Origin: a virus
Taxonomy: Duplodnaviria; Heunggongvirae; Uroviricota; Caudoviricetes
DNA length: 5,406 bases
Direction: 5' to 3' (one strand)
IMG/VR virus record: IMGVR_UViG_3300028532_000031
Location: 1-5,406 of that record
The notes under the pieces are model-generated. The model was not told where the DNA came from. It ran no database searches and was given only the letters and a program-made list of their open reading frames with translations. This document shows, one piece after another, positions 1,263 to 5,406 of the stretch (position 1 is its first letter; each line of letters begins with the position of its first letter). A program made the position numbers and the translations under genes.

Positions 1263-1757
1263 ATGATCATGATGATGATCTACGGCATGTTTGTTTTTGA
1301 GCTGCGCACACTGCCGCATCAGCAGTTACAGCAAAACAAAAGCTGGCGGCATGTGAAAAATGAGCGCGTAAACCGCTCAGCAAGCTGGCAGTATATCGGT
1401 GCAGGTGATGATCGCATCGTGCTTTCTGGCGTGCTTTATCCTGAAATTACAGGTGGCGAAGTGTCGCTTTCGCTGCTGACCACGCAGGCATATACAGGAC
1501 GCCCCTGGCCTCTGATTGATGGTGTCGGGCAGATTTACGGCATGTATGTACTGACTGAAACGAATACGACCCGCTCCGAGTTTGATCGCTACGGTAAGGC
1601 GAAAAAGATAGAATTTTCACTGACTCTTGAACGCTGTGATGAGGATTTGCGGGAGCGCCTGCAATCCTCATCGTTCAGTGATATGCTGTCCGGCTTCAAA
1701 GATAAGGTCACATCATCCCTTAACAGCGCGGCCAGCTCCGTTAAAGGGCTGTTTTGA
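1263..1757 (+). CDS. P2 gpU-like phage tail protein
   Basis: 164-aa ORF with the pattern FVFELRTLPHQ...GAGDDRIVLSGVLYPEITGG...GRPWPLIDGVGQIYGMYVL, which I recognise as the phage P2 tail protein U family. GAGGAG at 1255-1260 is only 2 nt from the ATG at 1263, so the true start is more likely the ATG at 1269 or 1272. Stop TGA at 1755-1757. Confidence 0.7.
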   Translation: MIMMMIYGMFVFELRTLPHQQLQQNKSWRHVKNERVNRSASWQYIGAGDDRIVLSGVLYPEITGGEVSLSLLTTQAYTGRPWPLIDGVGQIYGMYVLTETNTTRSEFDRYGKAKKIEFSLTLERCDEDLRERLQSSSFSDMLSGFKDKVTSSLNSAASSVKGLF

Positions 1758-1764
1758 TTAACGC

Positions 1765-1794
1765 AAAACCGCTAATGGTCAGATTAGCGGTTTT
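1765..1794. terminator. Bidirectional intrinsic terminator hairpin between convergent gpU and invertase genes
   Basis: Perfect 12-bp inverted repeat AAAACCGCTAAT (1765-1776) / ATTAGCGGTTTT (1783-1794) around a 6-nt loop GGTCAG. On the plus strand it is followed by TTTTCATTTT; the A-run in the left arm gives a U-run for the minus-strand transcript. It starts 8 nt after the gpU stop and overlaps the invertase stop codon (1784-1786). Confidence 0.5.
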
Positions 1795-2383
1795 CATTTT
1801 CCTGAGTCTGCCTGGTTGTTTCTTCAGCCTGTATATCGCCTACAGGGTGATAACGATAAATCGTCGATATGCCGATGTCGTAAATGATCGCCAGTTGTTT
1901 CCTGTCATGACCGTTTTTAATCAGCCTCGCTATTTGCTCGTGTTGTTCTTTTGTCAACTTCGGGCGACGTCCGCCAATGCGTCCTTGTGCGCGTGCTGCT
2001 GCCAGTCCGGCCAGTGTACGCTCTACAATTAATTCACGTTCCATTTCGGCTAAAGCCCCCATGACGTGAAAAAAGAAACGCCCCATGGGTGTTGATGTGT
2101 CAATGCTGTCCGTCAGACTACGGAAATTAACACCTTTTTCCCGCAATTCCTCAATAAGCGTAATCAGGTGTTTCATACTTCTGCCCAGTCTGTCCAGCTT
2201 CCAGACAACCAGCGTATCTCCTTCTGATAGCGTTCTGAGCAGTTTTTTCAATCCCGGTCTGGCTGATTTCGTTCCGCTGATTTTATCTTCAAAAATCAGT
2301 TCACATCCTGCGCAGTTCAGTGCATTGCGTTGTAAATCCGTGTTCTGGTCATTTGTTGACACACGAATATAGCCAATTTGCAT
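1784..2383 (-). CDS. Serine DNA invertase (Hin/Gin/Cin/Pin family site-specific recombinase)
   Basis: 199-aa product starting MQIGYIRVSTNDQNTDLQRN, with the catalytic Ser in the RVSTNDQ motif, ...VVWKLDRLGRSMKHL..., ...SPMGRFFFHVMGALAEMERELI..., and a C-terminal helix-turn-helix (QLAIIYDIGISTIYRYHP). It is near-identical in pattern to Gin/Hin as I recall them. Start chosen at the ATG at 2383-2381 because AGAGGA (minus strand, 2397-2392) lies 8 nt upstream; the ORF-track extension to 2593 has no such support. Confidence 0.92.
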   Translation of the reverse strand: MQIGYIRVSTNDQNTDLQRNALNCAGCELIFEDKISGTKSARPGLKKLLRTLSEGDTLVVWKLDRLGRSMKHLITLIEELREKGVNFRSLTDSIDTSTPMGRFFFHVMGALAEMERELIVERTLAGLAAARAQGRIGGRRPKLTKEQHEQIARLIKNGHDRKQLAIIYDIGISTIYRYHPVGDIQAEETTRQTQENENR

Positions 2384-2397
2384 AAAAAACATCCTCT

Positions 2398-2961
2398 TTG
2401 TTTCGTGAAAAATACATAGTTGGTATAGGTAGGGATAAAAACGAAAACGTTGGTTTGGGGGAAGGCTCTGCGCTGCCCGTTGGAGTGCCCGTTCCATGGC
2501 CCTCAGCCACGCCGCCAACGGGGTGGCTGAAATGTAACGGCGCAGCATTTTCTTCTGAAGAATACCCGGAATTGGCAAAGGCTTACCCGACAAATAAATT
2601 GCCTGATTTACGCGGTGAATTTATCCGTGGCTGGGATGATGGGCGTGGTGTGGATGCGGGGAGAGCAATATTATCAGCTCAGGGCGATGCCATACGTAAT
2701 ATCTATGGTGAGTTCAGAACTGTAAATACTGAAAATTATTCAATATGGGAAGGAATGAGCACGTTTAAGGGGGCTGTGGTGCCTTTAAATCCCTCCACAA
2801 ACAATAGTTATTTCTCCTTAGTCAAAAGTATGGTGACTGAAAGGGCAGACGGCGCTGTTTACCCAAAAGTGATCGGCCTTGATGCTTCAAAAATTGTTCC
2901 AACTGCAAATGAAAATCGCCCACGCAACATTGCGTTTAATTACATCGTAAGGGCGGCATAA
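2398..2961 (+). CDS. Tail-fibre C-terminal cassette 1 (startless, promoterless alternative receptor-binding segment)
   Basis: No ATG or RBS; the ORF-track start is a TTG. Encodes a phage tail-collar-like region (PVGVPVPWPSATPPTGWLKCNGAAFSSEEYPELAKAYPTNKLPDLRGEFIRGWDDGRGVD), then a unique central segment, then the shared C-terminal end ENRPRNIAFNYIVRAA. The NIAFNYIVR-type end is one I recall from enterobacterial side tail fibre proteins. Confidence 0.75.
   Translation: MFREKYIVGIGRDKNENVGLGEGSALPVGVPVPWPSATPPTGWLKCNGAAFSSEEYPELAKAYPTNKLPDLRGEFIRGWDDGRGVDAGRAILSAQGDAIRNIYGEFRTVNTENYSIWEGMSTFKGAVVPLNPSTNNSYFSLVKSMVTERADGAVYPKVIGLDASKIVPTANENRPRNIAFNYIVRAA
2413..2440 (-). promoter_or_regulatory. 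Candidate sigma70 promoter for the invertase gene, adjacent to putative crossover site 1
   Basis: On the minus strand: -35-like TTTTAT (plus coordinates 2440-2435), 16-nt spacer, -10-like TATGTA (2418-2413), about 30 nt upstream of the invertase ATG. Both hexamers are weak matches; this is a by-eye call only. Confidence 0.25.
2444..2465 (+). other. Putative invertase crossover site (copy 1, invertase-proximal) containing the 22-bp motif AAAACGTTGGTTTGGGGGAAGG
   Basis: The motif recurs at the 5' boundary of every plus-strand cassette. Its right half GGTTTGGGGGAA is the reverse complement of TTCCCCCAAACC, which resembles the Hin/Gin half-site consensus TTnTCnAAAACC. The inner part AAAAC-G-TT-GGTTT is partly palindromic. 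Copy 1 carries an extra in-frame AAAACG immediately 5' of the motif. Confidence 0.45.
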
Positions 2962-2982
2962 AAACGTTGGTTTGGGGGAAGG
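2961..2982 (+). other. Putative invertase crossover site (copy 2), AAAACGTTGGTTTGGGGGAAGG
   Basis: Exact repeat of the 22-bp motif, 517 bp after copy 1. It overlaps the stop codon of cassette 1 and begins the cassette 2 reading frame. Confidence 0.45.
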
Positions 2983-3433
2983 CTCTGCGCTGCCCGTTGG
3001 TGTACCTGTTCCATGGCCCTCAGCCACACCGCCAACGGGGTGGCTAAAATGTAACGGAGCAGCATTTTCTTCTGAAAAATACCCCAAACTGGCAAAGGCT
3101 TACCCAACGTTAAAATTACCGGATTTACGGGGTGAGTTTATCCGTGGCTGGGATGACGGACGTGGTGTGGATGCCGGGCGACAATTATTATCTTCACAGG
3201 GGGATGCAATAAGAAATATTGAGGGGTTCGCAGATGGCGGGATCGGCATGTCTTTTGATGCAATCAGAGGGGCTTTTTACGATGCAGGAACACGATCTGC
3301 GAGAATGCCGAATAACACAACTGATATAGGCAAAACCGATGACCTTGGATTCGACGCCTCTCGTGTCGTGCCAACAGCTAATGAAAACCGTCCTCGTAAT
3401 ATTGCCTTTAATTATATCGTAAGGGCGGCATAA
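2972..3433 (+). CDS. Tail-fibre C-terminal cassette 2 (startless)
   Basis: Same architecture as cassette 1: conserved collar-like 5' part, divergent middle (…GFADGGIGMSFDAIRGAFYDAGTRSARMPNNTTDIGKTDDLGFDASR…), conserved end ENRPRNIAFNYIVRAA. Begins in frame within motif copy 2; the ORF-track start is a TTG. Confidence 0.75.
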   Translation: MGEGSALPVGVPVPWPSATPPTGWLKCNGAAFSSEKYPKLAKAYPTLKLPDLRGEFIRGWDDGRGVDAGRQLLSSQGDAIRNIEGFADGGIGMSFDAIRGAFYDAGTRSARMPNNTTDIGKTDDLGFDASRVVPTANENRPRNIAFNYIVRAA

Positions 3434-3454
3434 AAACGTTGGTTTAGGGGAAGG
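3433..3454 (+). other. Putative invertase crossover site (copy 3), AAAACGTTGGTTTAGGGGAAGG (one substitution)
   Basis: One-mismatch copy of the motif, 472 bp after copy 2, overlapping the stop codon of cassette 2 at the boundary with cassette 3. Confidence 0.4.
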
Positions 3455-3473
3455 TTCGGCGCTGCCTGTTGGT

Positions 3474-3911
3474 GTGGCCGTTCCATGGCCCTCAGCCACG
3501 CTGCCAGCGGGGTGGTTGAAATGTAACGGCGCAGCATTTTCTTCTGAAATGTACCCCAATCTGGCAAAGGCCTACCCCACCAATAAATTACCGGATTTAC
3601 GGGGCGAATTTATTCGCGGCTGGGATGACGGACGGGGCGTTGATAATGGGCGCAACCTACTGTCTGCACAGTCTGACGCTATTCAGAATATAGTTGGCAC
3701 TTTTGGGCGTACTCAGCTTTTTAAAGATGCGTTTAATTCAGGACCATTTAGTCAAACTGACTCTATATTATCAGTAGGCTTACAACCAACTGAGATCATT
3801 GAAGGATATGGTGCTTCTGTATGGACATTCGACGCCTCTCGCTCAGTTCGCACAGCATCTGAAACACGCCCCCATAACATTGCGTTTAATTACATCGTAA
3901 GGGCAGCATGA
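3474..3911 (+). CDS. Tail-fibre C-terminal cassette 3 (startless)
   Basis: Same architecture; divergent middle (…GTFGRTQLFKDAFNSGPFSQTDSILSVGLQPTEIIEGYGASVWTFDASR…); ends ETRPHNIAFNYIVRAA. The in-frame reading extends back through motif copy 3 (KNVGLGEGSALPVGV…); the ORF-track start is a GTG. Confidence 0.75.
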   Translation: MAVPWPSATLPAGWLKCNGAAFSSEMYPNLAKAYPTNKLPDLRGEFIRGWDDGRGVDNGRNLLSAQSDAIQNIVGTFGRTQLFKDAFNSGPFSQTDSILSVGLQPTEIIEGYGASVWTFDASRSVRTASETRPHNIAFNYIVRAA

Positions 3912-3932
3912 AAACGTTGGTTTGGGGGAAGG
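3911..3932 (+). other. Putative invertase crossover site (copy 4), AAAACGTTGGTTTGGGGGAAGG
   Basis: Exact copy of the motif, 478 bp after copy 3, overlapping the TGA stop of cassette 3 at the boundary with cassette 4. Confidence 0.45.
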
Positions 3933-4380
3933 CTCTGCGCTGCCCGTTGGTGTACCTGTTCCATGGCCCTTAGAAACACCGCCAACGGGGTGGCTGAAAT
4001 GTAACGGCGCAGCATTTTCTTCTGAAATGTATCCCAGACTGGCAAAGGCCTACCCCACCAATAAATTACCGGATTTACGGGGTGAATTTATTCGCGGCTG
4101 GGATGATGGGCGCGGGGTGGATGCCGGAAGGGGCATCTTAAGCATGCAGGGGTGGTTAACAGGAAGTCATTATCATAATATTCGGTCATGGGATGCGTGG
4201 GATAACACGGTACTGGTGCCAAATGACAAAGGAGGGGATAGTCTGTTGTCGACAGATAACGCCGTCCGGCAAGGTGCAATTAACGGTAGATTTACCAGTC
4301 AATACAGAACGGAATCCTCAGAGGGGAATGAAACCCGCCCACGCAATATTGCCTTCAATTATATTGTGAGAACCGCATAA
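3922..4380 (+). CDS. Tail-fibre C-terminal cassette 4 (startless), translationally coupled to the tail fibre assembly gene
   Basis: Same architecture; divergent aromatic/His-rich middle (…GWLTGSHYHNIRSWDAWDNTVLVPNDKGGDSLLSTDNAVRQGAINGRFTSQYR…); ends ETRPRNIAFNYIVRTA. Its TAA stop (4378-4380) overlaps the ATG of the next gene (TAATG). Confidence 0.75.
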   Translation: MGEGSALPVGVPVPWPLETPPTGWLKCNGAAFSSEMYPRLAKAYPTNKLPDLRGEFIRGWDDGRGVDAGRGILSMQGWLTGSHYHNIRSWDAWDNTVLVPNDKGGDSLLSTDNAVRQGAINGRFTSQYRTESSEGNETRPRNIAFNYIVRTA

Positions 4381-4991
4381 TGAATAACGCGATATTAAAT
4401 GATGACCTTATTGCCGTACAGGCAGGAAACATCGTCGTTTATAACTATGATGGTGAGACACGGGAATATATTTCCGAATCAACTGAATATCTTGCTGCGG
4501 GTGTCGGTATTCCGGCAAATTCCTGTTTAGATGCCCCGGGCGCACATAAAGCGGGCTATGCTATCCGCCGTTCGGAGAATTTAAATTCATGGGAGTATAC
4601 GCCAGATCATCGTGGTGAAACCGTCTATAGCACTGATACGGGAAACACCGAAGAAATCACGACGCTGGGTGACTACCCGAAAAATACAACCACTATCGCC
4701 CCGTTAACACCATACGATAAATGGGATGGTGAAAAATGGGTGACGGATACCGAGGCACAGCATAGCGCCGCAGTAGAAGCGGCAGAAACACAGCGCCAGT
4801 CGCTGATTGATACTGCAATGGCTTCCATTAGTCTGATTCAGTTGAAGTTGCAGGCCGGGCGGAAGTTGACGCAGGCAGAAACCACCCGGCTTAACGCCGT
4901 GCTGGATTATATAGACGCACTGAACGCAATGGATATAAACATGGCATCAGATATCAACTGGCCGGAAATACCACTGGCAGCAGCCAGTTGA
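4380..4991 (+). CDS. Tail fibre assembly protein (Tfa chaperone; P2 gpG / Mu U-like role)
   Basis: 203-aa ORF directly downstream of and overlapping a tail-fibre cassette, the classic fibre-chaperone position. The C-terminus has the Tfa-like …DINWPEIP… pattern. Family assignment is from position and recalled motif, not a search. Confidence 0.65.
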   Translation: MNNAILNDDLIAVQAGNIVVYNYDGETREYISESTEYLAAGVGIPANSCLDAPGAHKAGYAIRRSENLNSWEYTPDHRGETVYSTDTGNTEEITTLGDYPKNTTTIAPLTPYDKWDGEKWVTDTEAQHSAAVEAAETQRQSLIDTAMASISLIQLKLQAGRKLTQAETTRLNAVLDYIDALNAMDINMASDINWPEIPLAAAS

Positions 4992-4997
4992 ATATAA

Positions 4998-5406
4998 CTA
5001 AGCCGCCCTCACGATATAGTTAAATGCAATATTGCGGGGGCGGGTTTCACTACCACCTGTGTTACCAATACTTCCTCGTGAATGAAGCGTTGGTGATGGA
5101 ATCAAACTCCCTCCTGTATTTGTGGCATCAAGCCCCCTGCCTTGTGTATATGTTTTTTTGAAAATCGTGGCCAACTCCCATTCATCCTTTGTGTCATATC
5201 CATCGTTAGCTACAACAATATGGCGGTGTTTTTCCAACATCCCGGTTTGAATGCTCAATAAAGCGCGTGCTGCATCAATTCCTCGCCCATCATCCCAGCC
5301 ACGAATAAATTCACCCCGTAAATCCGGTAATTTATTGGTGGGGTAGGCCTTTGCCAGTCTGGGATACATTTCAGAAGAAAATGCTGCGCCGTTACATTTC
5401 AGCCAC
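4998..5406 (-). CDS. Tail-fibre C-terminal cassette 5, inverted orientation; 5' end continues beyond the right window edge
   Basis: The minus-strand frame is open to the window end and reads …WLKCNGAAFSSEMYPRLAKAYPTNKLPDLRGEFIRGWDDGRGID…, then a unique middle, then SETRPRNIAFNYIVRAA with stop TAG (plus 4998-5000). The ORF-track start at M5369 is internal. The first 123 nt are the reverse complement of cassette 4 (3990-4112) with one mismatch. Confidence 0.8.
   Translation of the reverse strand, partial: WLKCNGAAFSSEMYPRLAKAYPTNKLPDLRGEFIRGWDDGRGIDAARALLSIQTGMLEKHRHIVVANDGYDTKDEWELATIFKKTYTQGRGLDATNTGGSLIPSPTLHSRGSIGNTGGSETRPRNIAFNYIVRAA

Follow-up and report, generated by a model that had tools for sequence, protein, structure and literature searches.

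In the 5406-nt stretch of viral DNA analysed here (the window), four copies of a 22-bp motif very probably serve as crossover sites at which multiple inversions exchange one tail-fibre tip for another in a P2-like (P88/Xuanwuvirus-type) prophage. The sites, the cassettes that follow them, an invertase gene, a homologous partner site and junctions at the site core were all observed. A system of the p15B Min type is recognized by three or more sites, overlapping segments and more than two alternative 3′ ends; the locus has all of these, with four sites in the window and one more expected beyond it by homology. It is an ordinary member of the Din-invertase multiple-inversion systems, a kind of system already described.

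Crossover sites and tip cassettes in the window

A search of the window for the motif AAAACGTTGGTTTGGGGGAAGG gave exactly four matches on the plus strand, at 2444-2465, 2961-2982, 3433-3454 and 3911-3932, the third with a single mismatch (G to A at motif position 14). These are the four direct copies that the original prediction had read from the letters, and none of 200 dinucleotide-preserving shuffles gave any match to the 22-mer, so that the chance expectation is none. Only direct copies are present inside the window. The 22-mer is most of a 26-bp crossover site in which two 12-nt half-sites flank a TT core; this site starts 6 nt upstream of the 22-mer and stops 2 nt short of its end. The four sites are:

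2438-2463, plus strand: crossover site 1, AAAACGAAAACG TT GGTTTGGGGGAA, core TT at 2450-2451, adjoining the invertase gene
2955-2980, plus strand: crossover site 2, GGCATAAAAACG TT GGTTTGGGGGAA, core TT at 2967-2968
3427-3452, plus strand: crossover site 3, GGCATAAAAACG TT GGTTTAGGGGAA, core TT at 3439-3440
3905-3930, plus strand: crossover site 4, AGCATGAAAACG TT GGTTTGGGGGAA, core TT at 3917-3918

The left half of site 1 recurs beside the invertase gene in 41-56 related sites, and the G to A change of site 3 is a common variant, found in 34 of 248 sites. A promoterless cassette for a Collar-domain tail-fibre tip follows each of the four sites. The cassette names used here (T1, T4-T8) are labels coined in this analysis, and H denotes the tail-fibre gene:

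2449-2961, plus strand: silent tail-fibre tip cassette T6, 170 aa, Pfam Collar (E = 1.1e-15)
2966-3433, plus strand: silent tail-fibre tip cassette T7, 155 aa, from Pfam and cassette typing; joined to the H constant part in related locus L017
3438-3911, plus strand: silent tail-fibre tip cassette T5, 157 aa; joined to the H constant part in L003, L007, L008, L010 and L011
3916-4380, plus strand: silent tail-fibre tip cassette T1, 154 aa; joined to the H constant part in L009 and L012
4380-4991, plus strand: tfa, tail-fibre assembly (chaperone) gene, 203 aa, Pfam Caudo_TAP (E = 1.2e-33), the sole tfa
4998-5406, minus strand: T4, the 3′ part of a fifth cassette cut by the window edge, its Collar domain truncated at the N-terminus

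The T1 stop codon overlaps the tfa start codon (TAATG), and the inverted repeats I1-I4 extend to the end of the window. The stop codons of the preceding cassettes, TAA at 2959-2961, TAA at 3431-3433 and TGA at 3909-3911, each end on the first A of the motif, confirming that in copies 2-4 they stand at its upstream edge; at site 2 the left half-site overlaps this stop codon. The predicted reading frame through the motif, K-N-V-G-L-G-E-G in every copy, held for N-V-G-L-G-E-G; the K did not hold for copy 1, which reads E-N-V-G-L-G-E-G (GAA AAC GTT, 2443-2451). Once a cassette is fused to H and expressed, gene H supplies the residues to the left of the crossover (D-Y-L-G-L-G-E-G), so that K-N-V does not occur in the fibre at all.

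Conservation extends beyond the 22-mer, which forms the left edge of a ∼215-nt conserved collar-coding block; in copies 2-4 it is preceded by a conserved 54-nt 3′ end of the previous cassette. The repeat unit is ∼300 nt long, with spacings of 517, 472 and 478.

Site type and invertase

For comparison, pix, cix and gix sequences were taken directly from the MG1655, P1 and Mu records. The e14 pix sites are CTCTCGAAAACC TT GGTTTGGGAGAA and TTTTCATAAACG TT GGTTTGGGAGAA, P1 cix is ...TAAACC TT GGTTTAAGAGAA and Mu gix is TTATCCAAAACC TC GGTTTACAGGAA. The right half-site GGTTTGGGGGAA agrees with pix at 11/12 positions and with gix and cix at 9/12 each. Left half-sites of copies 2-4 match the family half-site weakly (∼6/12 against the left half of pixR). 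Like pix and cix, the window sites have a TT core, whereas Mu gix has TC; in the P1 record the crossover is annotated as falling between the two T of the core. The Mu site, translated in the same frame as the window sites, gives N-L-G-L-Q-E. These comparisons assign the motif to the Din-family (Hin/Gin/Cin/Pin) crossover sites. The original description of it as a 22-bp hix/gix-like element was thus right about the family, while the length is 26 bp and the nearest relative is pix rather than hix or gix.

Beside site 1, at a distance of 55 nt, lies the gene of a matching recombinase:

1784-2383, minus strand: Din-family serine DNA invertase, 199 aa, with Ser9, His106 and Met114
2294-2365, minus strand: homologue of the annotated P1 cin recombinational enhancer (nt 19-90 of the invertase gene), a putative enhancer

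The protein has the Pfam Resolvase (E = 1.5e-51) and HTH_7 (E = 1.4e-12) domains, matches the Gin structures 3UJ3 and 4M6F at E = 1e-91, and is 82% identical to PinE, 74% to Cin and 72% to Gin, with Ser9 invariant. By homology, the enzyme is a Gin/Pin-type serine invertase of the Din family. The enhancer-homologous segment aligns without gaps with the P1 cin enhancer, at a nucleotide identity of 74-88% compared with 65-68% in the rest of the gene, and it contains more identical synonymous codons than the remainder. His106 and Met114 are kept in the window invertase, while the solved Gin chains (4M6F and 3UJ3) have Val at 114; we take positions 106 and 114 to be where Fis-independent mutants arise. 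By sequence homology, the window system may depend on Fis and the enhancer.

The e14 Pin/pix, Mu Gin/gix and P1 Cin/cix systems resemble the locus in that their site is 26 bp long, the junction is read in the same frame and the invertase gene adjoins the outermost site. They differ in having two sites, one invertible segment and two cassettes each with its own tfa, whereas the window system has a single tfa and at least five sites, counting the one expected by homology. The position of the invertase gene differs too: cixL of P1 overlaps the 3′ end of cin, whereas the window site is located upstream of the invertase gene's 5′ end.

The inverted partner in gene H and the proposed mechanism

An inverted partner site is present in gene H of every complete homologous locus; in related prophages it reads TTCTTGATTACC TT GGTTTGGGGGAA. 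Sites on both strands, one of them in H, were found in 10 of 11 homologous loci; the eleventh, L012, is truncated and has the H site only. By homology, the window's own partner should lie ∼73 nt beyond position 5406, inside gene H. This bears out the prediction of an inverted partner outside the window as seen in the homologues, the window's own copy being expected on their pattern. The further claim, that a crossover would fuse an upstream constant region in frame to any cassette, is matched in other genomes, where H was found fused to 14 or more types of cassette.

We propose that the invertase (1784-2383, minus strand) would pair one site with an oppositely oriented site, cut both at the 2-nt core, rotate and religate, leaving the intervening DNA inverted. 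The right half-site and everything downstream of it belong to a promoterless cassette encoding a Collar-domain receptor-binding C-terminus. The partner relevant for expression would lie at the constant/variable junction of H, just past the right edge of the window by homology, and inversion would place a different cassette in frame behind the H constant part. Given five sites, of which four are direct and one is inverted, nested inversions could reach 48 arrangements and five alternative fibre tips, with one shared tfa chaperone gene located after cassette T1.

The layout of locus L005 is the same as that of the window, with the H constant part joined to T4. By analogy, T4 would be the tip currently fused to H in the window, and it is probably the expressed tip.

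Natural isomers place the crossover at the core

Eleven loci with an identical tfa, together with the related CB9615 locus (L001), contain the same cassettes in varying order and orientation, and what follows the H constant part differs among these genomes, being T1, T4, T5 or T8; isomers related by nested inversions are seen among the related loci. A single inversion separates L005 from L011, two loci that share 99.7-99.96% identity. At both reciprocal junctions the change of parent occurs between −1 and +7 of the first core T, i.e. within TTGGTTT, a resolution of 7 nt rather than 2 nt, and ∼40 markers in the downstream collar block all stay with their cassette. The original prediction had named the ∼200-bp collar-coding region as a place where junctions would speak against it; those of L005 and L011 lie in the TT core region and not in the collar block. 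Comparison of natural isomers thus maps the crossover to within 7 nt from public assemblies alone.

These junctions bear on the possibility that general, RecA-type homologous recombination between the ∼215-nt collar repeats moves the cassettes, with the 22-mer merely the left edge of the homology. The motif is indeed continuous with the long conserved block, the repeats of a homologous locus have been described simply as 215-bp inverted repeats of 92% homology, with the crossover not located (PMC4272514), and an identical stretch of at least 105 nt in the T1 and T4 collars points to homogenisation. We nevertheless regard this explanation as quite improbable, as it does not account for both L005/L011 junctions falling in TTGGTTT with every collar marker kept. 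It is also opposed by 31 cassette alleles whose first 250 nt are unchanged behind two or more different left half-sites, and by the conservation of the site itself: 245 of 248 sites (69 loci) keep the TT core, and third-codon conservation is 0.94 in the core and right half against 0.79 in the rest of the block. Finally, a Gin/Pin-type invertase gene is always adjacent, and the site is homologous to annotated cix, pix and gix. Invertase-mediated exchange at the core remains the preferred reading, and the T1/T4 collar identity suggests that some homologous exchange or gene conversion may occur in the collar block as well. The G/A variant at +6 was considered as a marker of cassette type; across lineages the two do not always go together, and exact-allele comparisons were therefore used instead.

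Two contigs suggest inversion in the window's own lineage. L065 is 99.8-100% identical to the window, with the T1-tfa-T4 segment inverted and one end of the inversion at site 4; where the two switch over could not be located, the collars of T1 and T4 showing no difference for at least 105 nt. In L017, which matches the window at 98.7-99.6% identity in the segments they share, the same five cassettes are found two inversions away, and the inverted alignment of the window to it begins exactly at 2967. L065 and L017 are probably alternative isomers, or assembly breaks at the repeats; at loci of this kind, assemblies from short reads or metagenomes break and spurious contigs result. A look-up of the first-cassette ORF (187 aa) returned a sole match, a metagenome contig in a different isomer. 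Phage P88, the named phage nearest to the window's left part, was considered as a guide to the array and set aside; it is without the motif and has an unrelated two-cassette region.

Cassettes as probable parts of one fibre gene

Open reading frames with TTG or GTG starts begin at 2398, 2972, 3474 and 3922, and RefSeq labels the homologues 'phage tail protein'. The four units might on this basis be independent small tail-protein genes, tandem paralogues with internal TTG/GTG starts whose shared 5′ sequence reflects common ancestry. This is highly improbable. The TTG starts at 2972 and 3922 fall inside the recombination site and, by eye, neither has an obvious Shine-Dalgarno sequence upstream. 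The units are without the N-terminal Phage_tail_fib and Phage_fiber_2 domains present in the full H protein, and the same units are fused in frame to the H constant part in other genomes. Automatic pipelines often mis-annotate such fragments (PMC4134206). As fibre-tip cassettes, the units explain both the five half-genes in a row and the automatic 'phage tail proteins' labels. In a promoter and terminator scan of 1700-5406 the counts were not above those of shuffled sequence, and the same scan gave no promoter-like site in the spacer between invertase and cassettes; it is silent on the expression of cassettes or tfa.

That the direct repeats are instead resolution sites, excising cassettes and progressively shrinking the array, would suit their direct orientation in the window and the range of cassette number among related loci (3 to 8 or more), but is scarcely credible given direct-site arrays of up to seven that persist intact (e.g. 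L060), a recombinase of invertase type (∼190-200 aa) rather than a resolvase with res sites, and differences between close relatives that are inversions. In Hin and Gin, the invertasome formed with the enhancer and Fis disfavours deletion and strongly favours inversion. The direct orientation of the window sites would accordingly cause no cassette loss, because the Fis/enhancer-dependent complex of this enzyme family strongly favours inversion over deletion.

Relation to known inversion systems

The Min multiple-inversion system of plasmid p15B and P1-like phage-plasmids was reportedly described by Sandmeier, Iida and Arber in 1990-1994. In it, a Din-family invertase acts on several sites that bound overlapping segments carrying alternative 3′ ends of one tail-fibre gene. 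Invertase family, overlapping invertible segments and alternative fibre 3′ ends are all shared with the window system, which differs in belonging to a chromosomal P2-like prophage rather than a P1-like plasmid prophage. The P1/P7-like plasmid pMCR_SCKP-LL83 has nine sites of the same sequence type, with cassettes ∼89% identical, and the related loci have 3-8 sites and 23 cassette types. A model of the inversions gave 4 isomers for three sites, 48 for five and 240 for six, the last presumably being the number for p15B. The modelled 4 isomers agree with the four variants found in Escherichia coli E2348/69.

A close published case is the P2-like prophage 'shufflon' of the EPEC strain E2348/69. 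PCR confirmed that four variants coexist there (Goldberg et al. 2014; PMC4272514), so that inversion of a homologous E. coli prophage locus has already been shown. Its region (L013) is 95.6% identical over 85% of the window, and the published inversions, 1891695-1893703 and 1892127-1893703 (PMC4272514, Table S1), have coordinates that are exactly the three sites mapped in L013. The two systems share the invertase position, the T1-tfa-T4 core segment and the 26-bp sites; E2348/69 has three sites, three tips and four isomers, whereas the window system would have five sites, the fifth by homology, five tips and 48 isomers.

The 26-bp crossover sites reported for EC958 Phi2, TCCTCAATTACCTTGGTTTAGGAGAA and GAGAGATAAACGTTGGTTTGGGGGAA (Forde et al. 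2014; PMC4134206, Table 3), are of the same TT-core type with an identical right half GGTTTGGGGGAA, and inversion there was seen as PacBio contigs of the alternative allele (PMC4134206). In both systems a stable 5′ part (Phage_fibre_2 repeats) is joined to an invertible 3′ part (Collar domain). EC958 Phi2 differs in having two sites and one invertible segment of 2067 bp, and in its H constant-part half-site, TCCTCAATTACC versus TTCTTGATTACC in the window's relatives.

The R64 shufflon likewise generates alternative C-termini of one protein (PilV) through several inversions. It uses the Rci tyrosine recombinase and 19-bp sfx sites, acts on a pilus adhesin and is not homologous, so 'shufflon' applies to the window system only as an analogy. 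Membership of the Rci type was ruled out by the serine invertase and the 26-bp pix-like sites.

Nothing here is conceptually new, the enzyme family, the site and multi-site tail-fibre inversion having been known since the work on p15B, Mu, P1 and e14. Five receptor-binding tips from one fibre gene would constitute a device for bet-hedging on host range. A broader reading is that a high-capacity Din 'shufflon' (5-9 sites, up to thousands of isomers) is common to P2-like (Xuanwuvirus-type) prophages and P1-like plasmids, with one Tfa for every tip, T4 expressed only with tfa antisense to the fibre gene, and collars homogenised by gene conversion; as a whole we hold this to be possible though doubtful. 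If true, T4 with an antisense tfa would imply a chaperone-free fibre tip or a separately driven tfa. Among GTDB species representatives, the exact 22-mer is present in one, Escherichia sp. MOD1-EC7003.

Crossover sites of a multiple-inversion system

The repeated motifs belong, as pix-like crossover sites, to a multiple-inversion system of the Din family (Hin, Gin, Cin, Pin and Min), in which inversion would fuse alternative receptor-binding tips to H, the P2-like tail-fibre gene. The window comes from the tail region of a P2-like prophage, one of the P88/Xuanwuvirus type.

Genes of the window
to 1256, +, tape measure protein C-terminus
1263-1757, +, gpU
1784-2383, -, Resolvase and HTH_7 recombinase
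2449-4380, +, four Collar-domain units of 154-170 aa
4380-4991, +, tfa, one chaperone gene (Caudo_TAP)
4998-5406, -, fifth Collar unit, cut by the window edge

Among E. coli, the window is best matched by chromosomal prophages, 95-98% identical, including those of O55:H7 CB9615 and EPEC E2348/69, where H is a minus-strand gene that enters on the right. A 12-pair hairpin at 1765-1794, between the convergent gpU and invertase genes and bordered by an A-run and, at its opposite end, a T-run, fits a bidirectional terminator. In related loci (L001, L003-L013) the block of sheath, tube, tape measure and gpU is inverted with respect to the baseplate and fibre block, which it faces across the invertase gene and the cassettes, with gpD beyond the sheath gene. 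The gene order of this prophage type departs from the classical P2 order.

A search with the 22-mer AAAACGTTGGTTTGGGGGAAGG, allowing up to three mismatches, gave exactly four matches in the window, all on the plus strand, at 2444, 2961, 3433 (one mismatch) and 3911, whilst none of 200 dinucleotide-preserving shuffles contained a match at this threshold. The four direct copies of the original prediction were thus borne out, as was the stop codon placed at the upstream edge of copies 2-4: the preceding frames end in TAA (2959-2961), TAA (3431-3433) and TGA (3909-3911), each including the first A of the motif. Every downstream frame passes through the motif as N-V-G-L-G-E-G, but the K proposed ahead of it in all copies is E (GAA) in copy 1. 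The 22-mer is no free-standing element: it forms the left margin of a ~215-nt conserved block. Since in copies 2-4 the last 54 nt of the unit before it are conserved as well, the repeat is ~300 nt long, with spacings of 517, 472 and 478.

In homologous loci (L001 of CB9615 and L013 of E2348/69) the silent cassettes appear in RefSeq as separate 'phage tail protein' genes with TTG or GTG starts, some inside the recombination site; the corresponding ORFs of the window are 2398-2961, 2972-3433, 3474-3911 and 3922-4380. These calls are most likely annotation artefacts.

Anatomy of the 26-bp site

The functional unit is 26 bp, parsed as 12 + 2 + 12 nt. The sites used for comparison, those of e14 Pin (pix), P1 Cin (cix) and Mu Gin (gix), were taken from actual sequence records.

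Crossover sites of the window and of known systems
Site 1, 2438-2463, AAAACGAAAACG TT GGTTTGGGGGAA
Site 2, 2955-2980, GGCATAAAAACG TT GGTTTGGGGGAA
Site 3, 3427-3452, GGCATAAAAACG TT GGTTTAGGGGAA
Site 4, 3905-3930, AGCATGAAAACG TT GGTTTGGGGGAA
e14 pix, two sites, CTCTCGAAAACC TT GGTTTGGGAGAA and TTTTCATAAACG TT GGTTTGGGAGAA
P1 cix, ...TAAACC TT GGTTTAAGAGAA
Mu gix, TTATCCAAAACC TC GGTTTACAGGAA

The right half-site of the window sites is identical to e14 pix at 11/12 positions and to both P1 cix and Mu gix at 9/12. The suggested resemblance to a Hin/Gin half-site therefore holds for gix, but pix is nearer and the site is 26 bp rather than 22. The P1 record places the crossover between the two central T, and the Mu site, translated from its record, reads N-L-G-L-Q-E in the same frame as the window sites. 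On these half-site identities, crossover annotation and shared frame, the junction appears to be homologous across these inversion systems, beyond mere similarity.

The core was TT in 245 of 248 sites from 69 loci. Third-codon conservation is 0.94 in the core and right half versus 0.79 in the rest of the block, which points to constraint at the DNA level. One crossover site of a related prophage (L004, 9530-9545) is short of one T of the core (…CATAAAAAC GT GGTTTGG…), a loss that should inactivate the site and also put the cassette out of frame with the junction.

The exchange can be placed in a 7-nt stretch that holds the TT core. Loci L005 and L011 are 99.7-99.96% identical and one inversion apart, and their two parental and two recombinant junctions were aligned, counting from the first T of the core. 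Both products change parent between -1 (G versus C) and +7 (A versus G), that is, within TTGGTTT, and all of the ~40 distinguishing markers of the collar block remain with their own cassette. The original prediction had named junctions in the collar region of ~200 bp as evidence against itself; in this pair the junctions lie in TTGGTTT instead. Moreover, 31 cassette alleles (first 250 nt identical) occur behind at least two different left half-sites.

Invertase and inverted partner

The recombinase at 1784-2383 matches solved Gin structures with E = 1e-91, and shares 82% identity with PinE, 74% with Cin and 72% with Gin. In the P1 record the Cin enhancer is annotated as nt 19-90 of cin, and the equivalent segment of the window, 2294-2365, aligns with it without gaps. 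Nucleotide identity is 74-88% in this segment compared with 65-68% across the remaining invertase gene, and identical synonymous codons are more frequent there than elsewhere in the gene. This is consistent with, though no proof of, a Fis-dependent enhancer.

The window's tfa protein is found unchanged on many contigs, and ten loci that carry it were read together with the related CB9615 locus. Sites lie on both strands in 10 of the 11, the truncated L012 having the H site alone. One site is always inside H (TTCTTGATTACC TT GGTTTGGGGGAA) and one always beside the invertase gene, with left half AAAACGAAAACG. The inverted partner that the original prediction required beyond the window is present in every complete homologous locus; L005 has the layout of the window, and its H site projects to ~5479, 73 nt past the window edge, where the window's own partner in H probably lies. 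Depending on the locus, the H constant part carries cassette type T1, T4, T5 or T8. The original interpretation, with its in-frame fusion of an upstream constant region to a cassette, is correct on every essential point, and D-Y-L-G-L-G-E-G is the reading of the expressed junction. The permutations of L006-L010, with four cassettes each, are interconvertible by nested inversions. A single locus of the 69 has as many as eight sites; 23 cassette types were distinguished across the set, and no fewer than 14 of these occur joined to H.

Isomers and known systems

Probable isomers also occur in the window's own lineage. The IMG/VR contig L065 matches the window at 99.8-100% identity, with the T1-tfa-T4 segment inverted, the junction position being blurred because the T1 and T4 collars are identical there. 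The metagenome contig L017 (98.7-99.6% identical over shared segments) shares all five cassettes, has the H constant part on T7 and is two inversions from the window; its inverted alignment begins exactly at 2967, the first T of the core.

In a P2-like prophage carried by E2348/69, Goldberg et al. (2014) found a 'shufflon' that has three repeats, offers three alternative C-termini and exists as four variants side by side (PMC4272514). The inversion coordinates in Table S1 of that paper (1891695-1893703 and 1892127-1893703) fall on the three sites located here in L013 (locus positions 8451, 8012 and 6450). Under a simple inversion model, three sites allow 4 isomers, the number observed in E2348/69, five sites 48 and six sites 240. 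Forde et al. (2014) reported 26-bp crossover sites, including GAGAGATAAACGTT GGTTTGGGGGAA, in EC958 prophage Phi2, where a stable 5' part is joined to an invertible Collar-coding 3' part (PMC4134206), and a gin-dependent tail-fibre shufflon with three tips was shown in an Enterobacter phage in 2026 (PMC13418256). The window locus is larger (five sites, the fifth placed from homologues) than the E2348/69 system, which was shown to invert and whose prophage is 95.6% identical. Its novelty is low.

Nine 26-bp sites of this type lie on pMCR_SCKP-LL83 (MF510496.1; L075, 5600-10550), a P1/P7-like phage-plasmid from Klebsiella, whose H constant part contains the same half-site and whose cassettes are ~89% identical. 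Thus the whole switching module is common to P2-like prophages and P1-like plasmids, and the nine sites link it to the p15B Min system.

Over at least 105 nt (3990-4094 versus the reverse complement of 5302-5406) the T1 and T4 cassettes have one and the same 5' collar sequence. Other pairs of cassettes diverge by ~10-15%, and T1 and T4 of CB9615 differ in this stretch at the protein level. This suggests homogenisation or gene conversion between inverted repeats, on top of site-specific exchange.

The five cassettes have a single tfa between them, which lies tail-to-tail with T4. With H fused to T4, the window's presumed state, tfa would be antisense to the fibre gene. T4-type tips were fused to H at only 2 of the 35 H junctions seen across loci.
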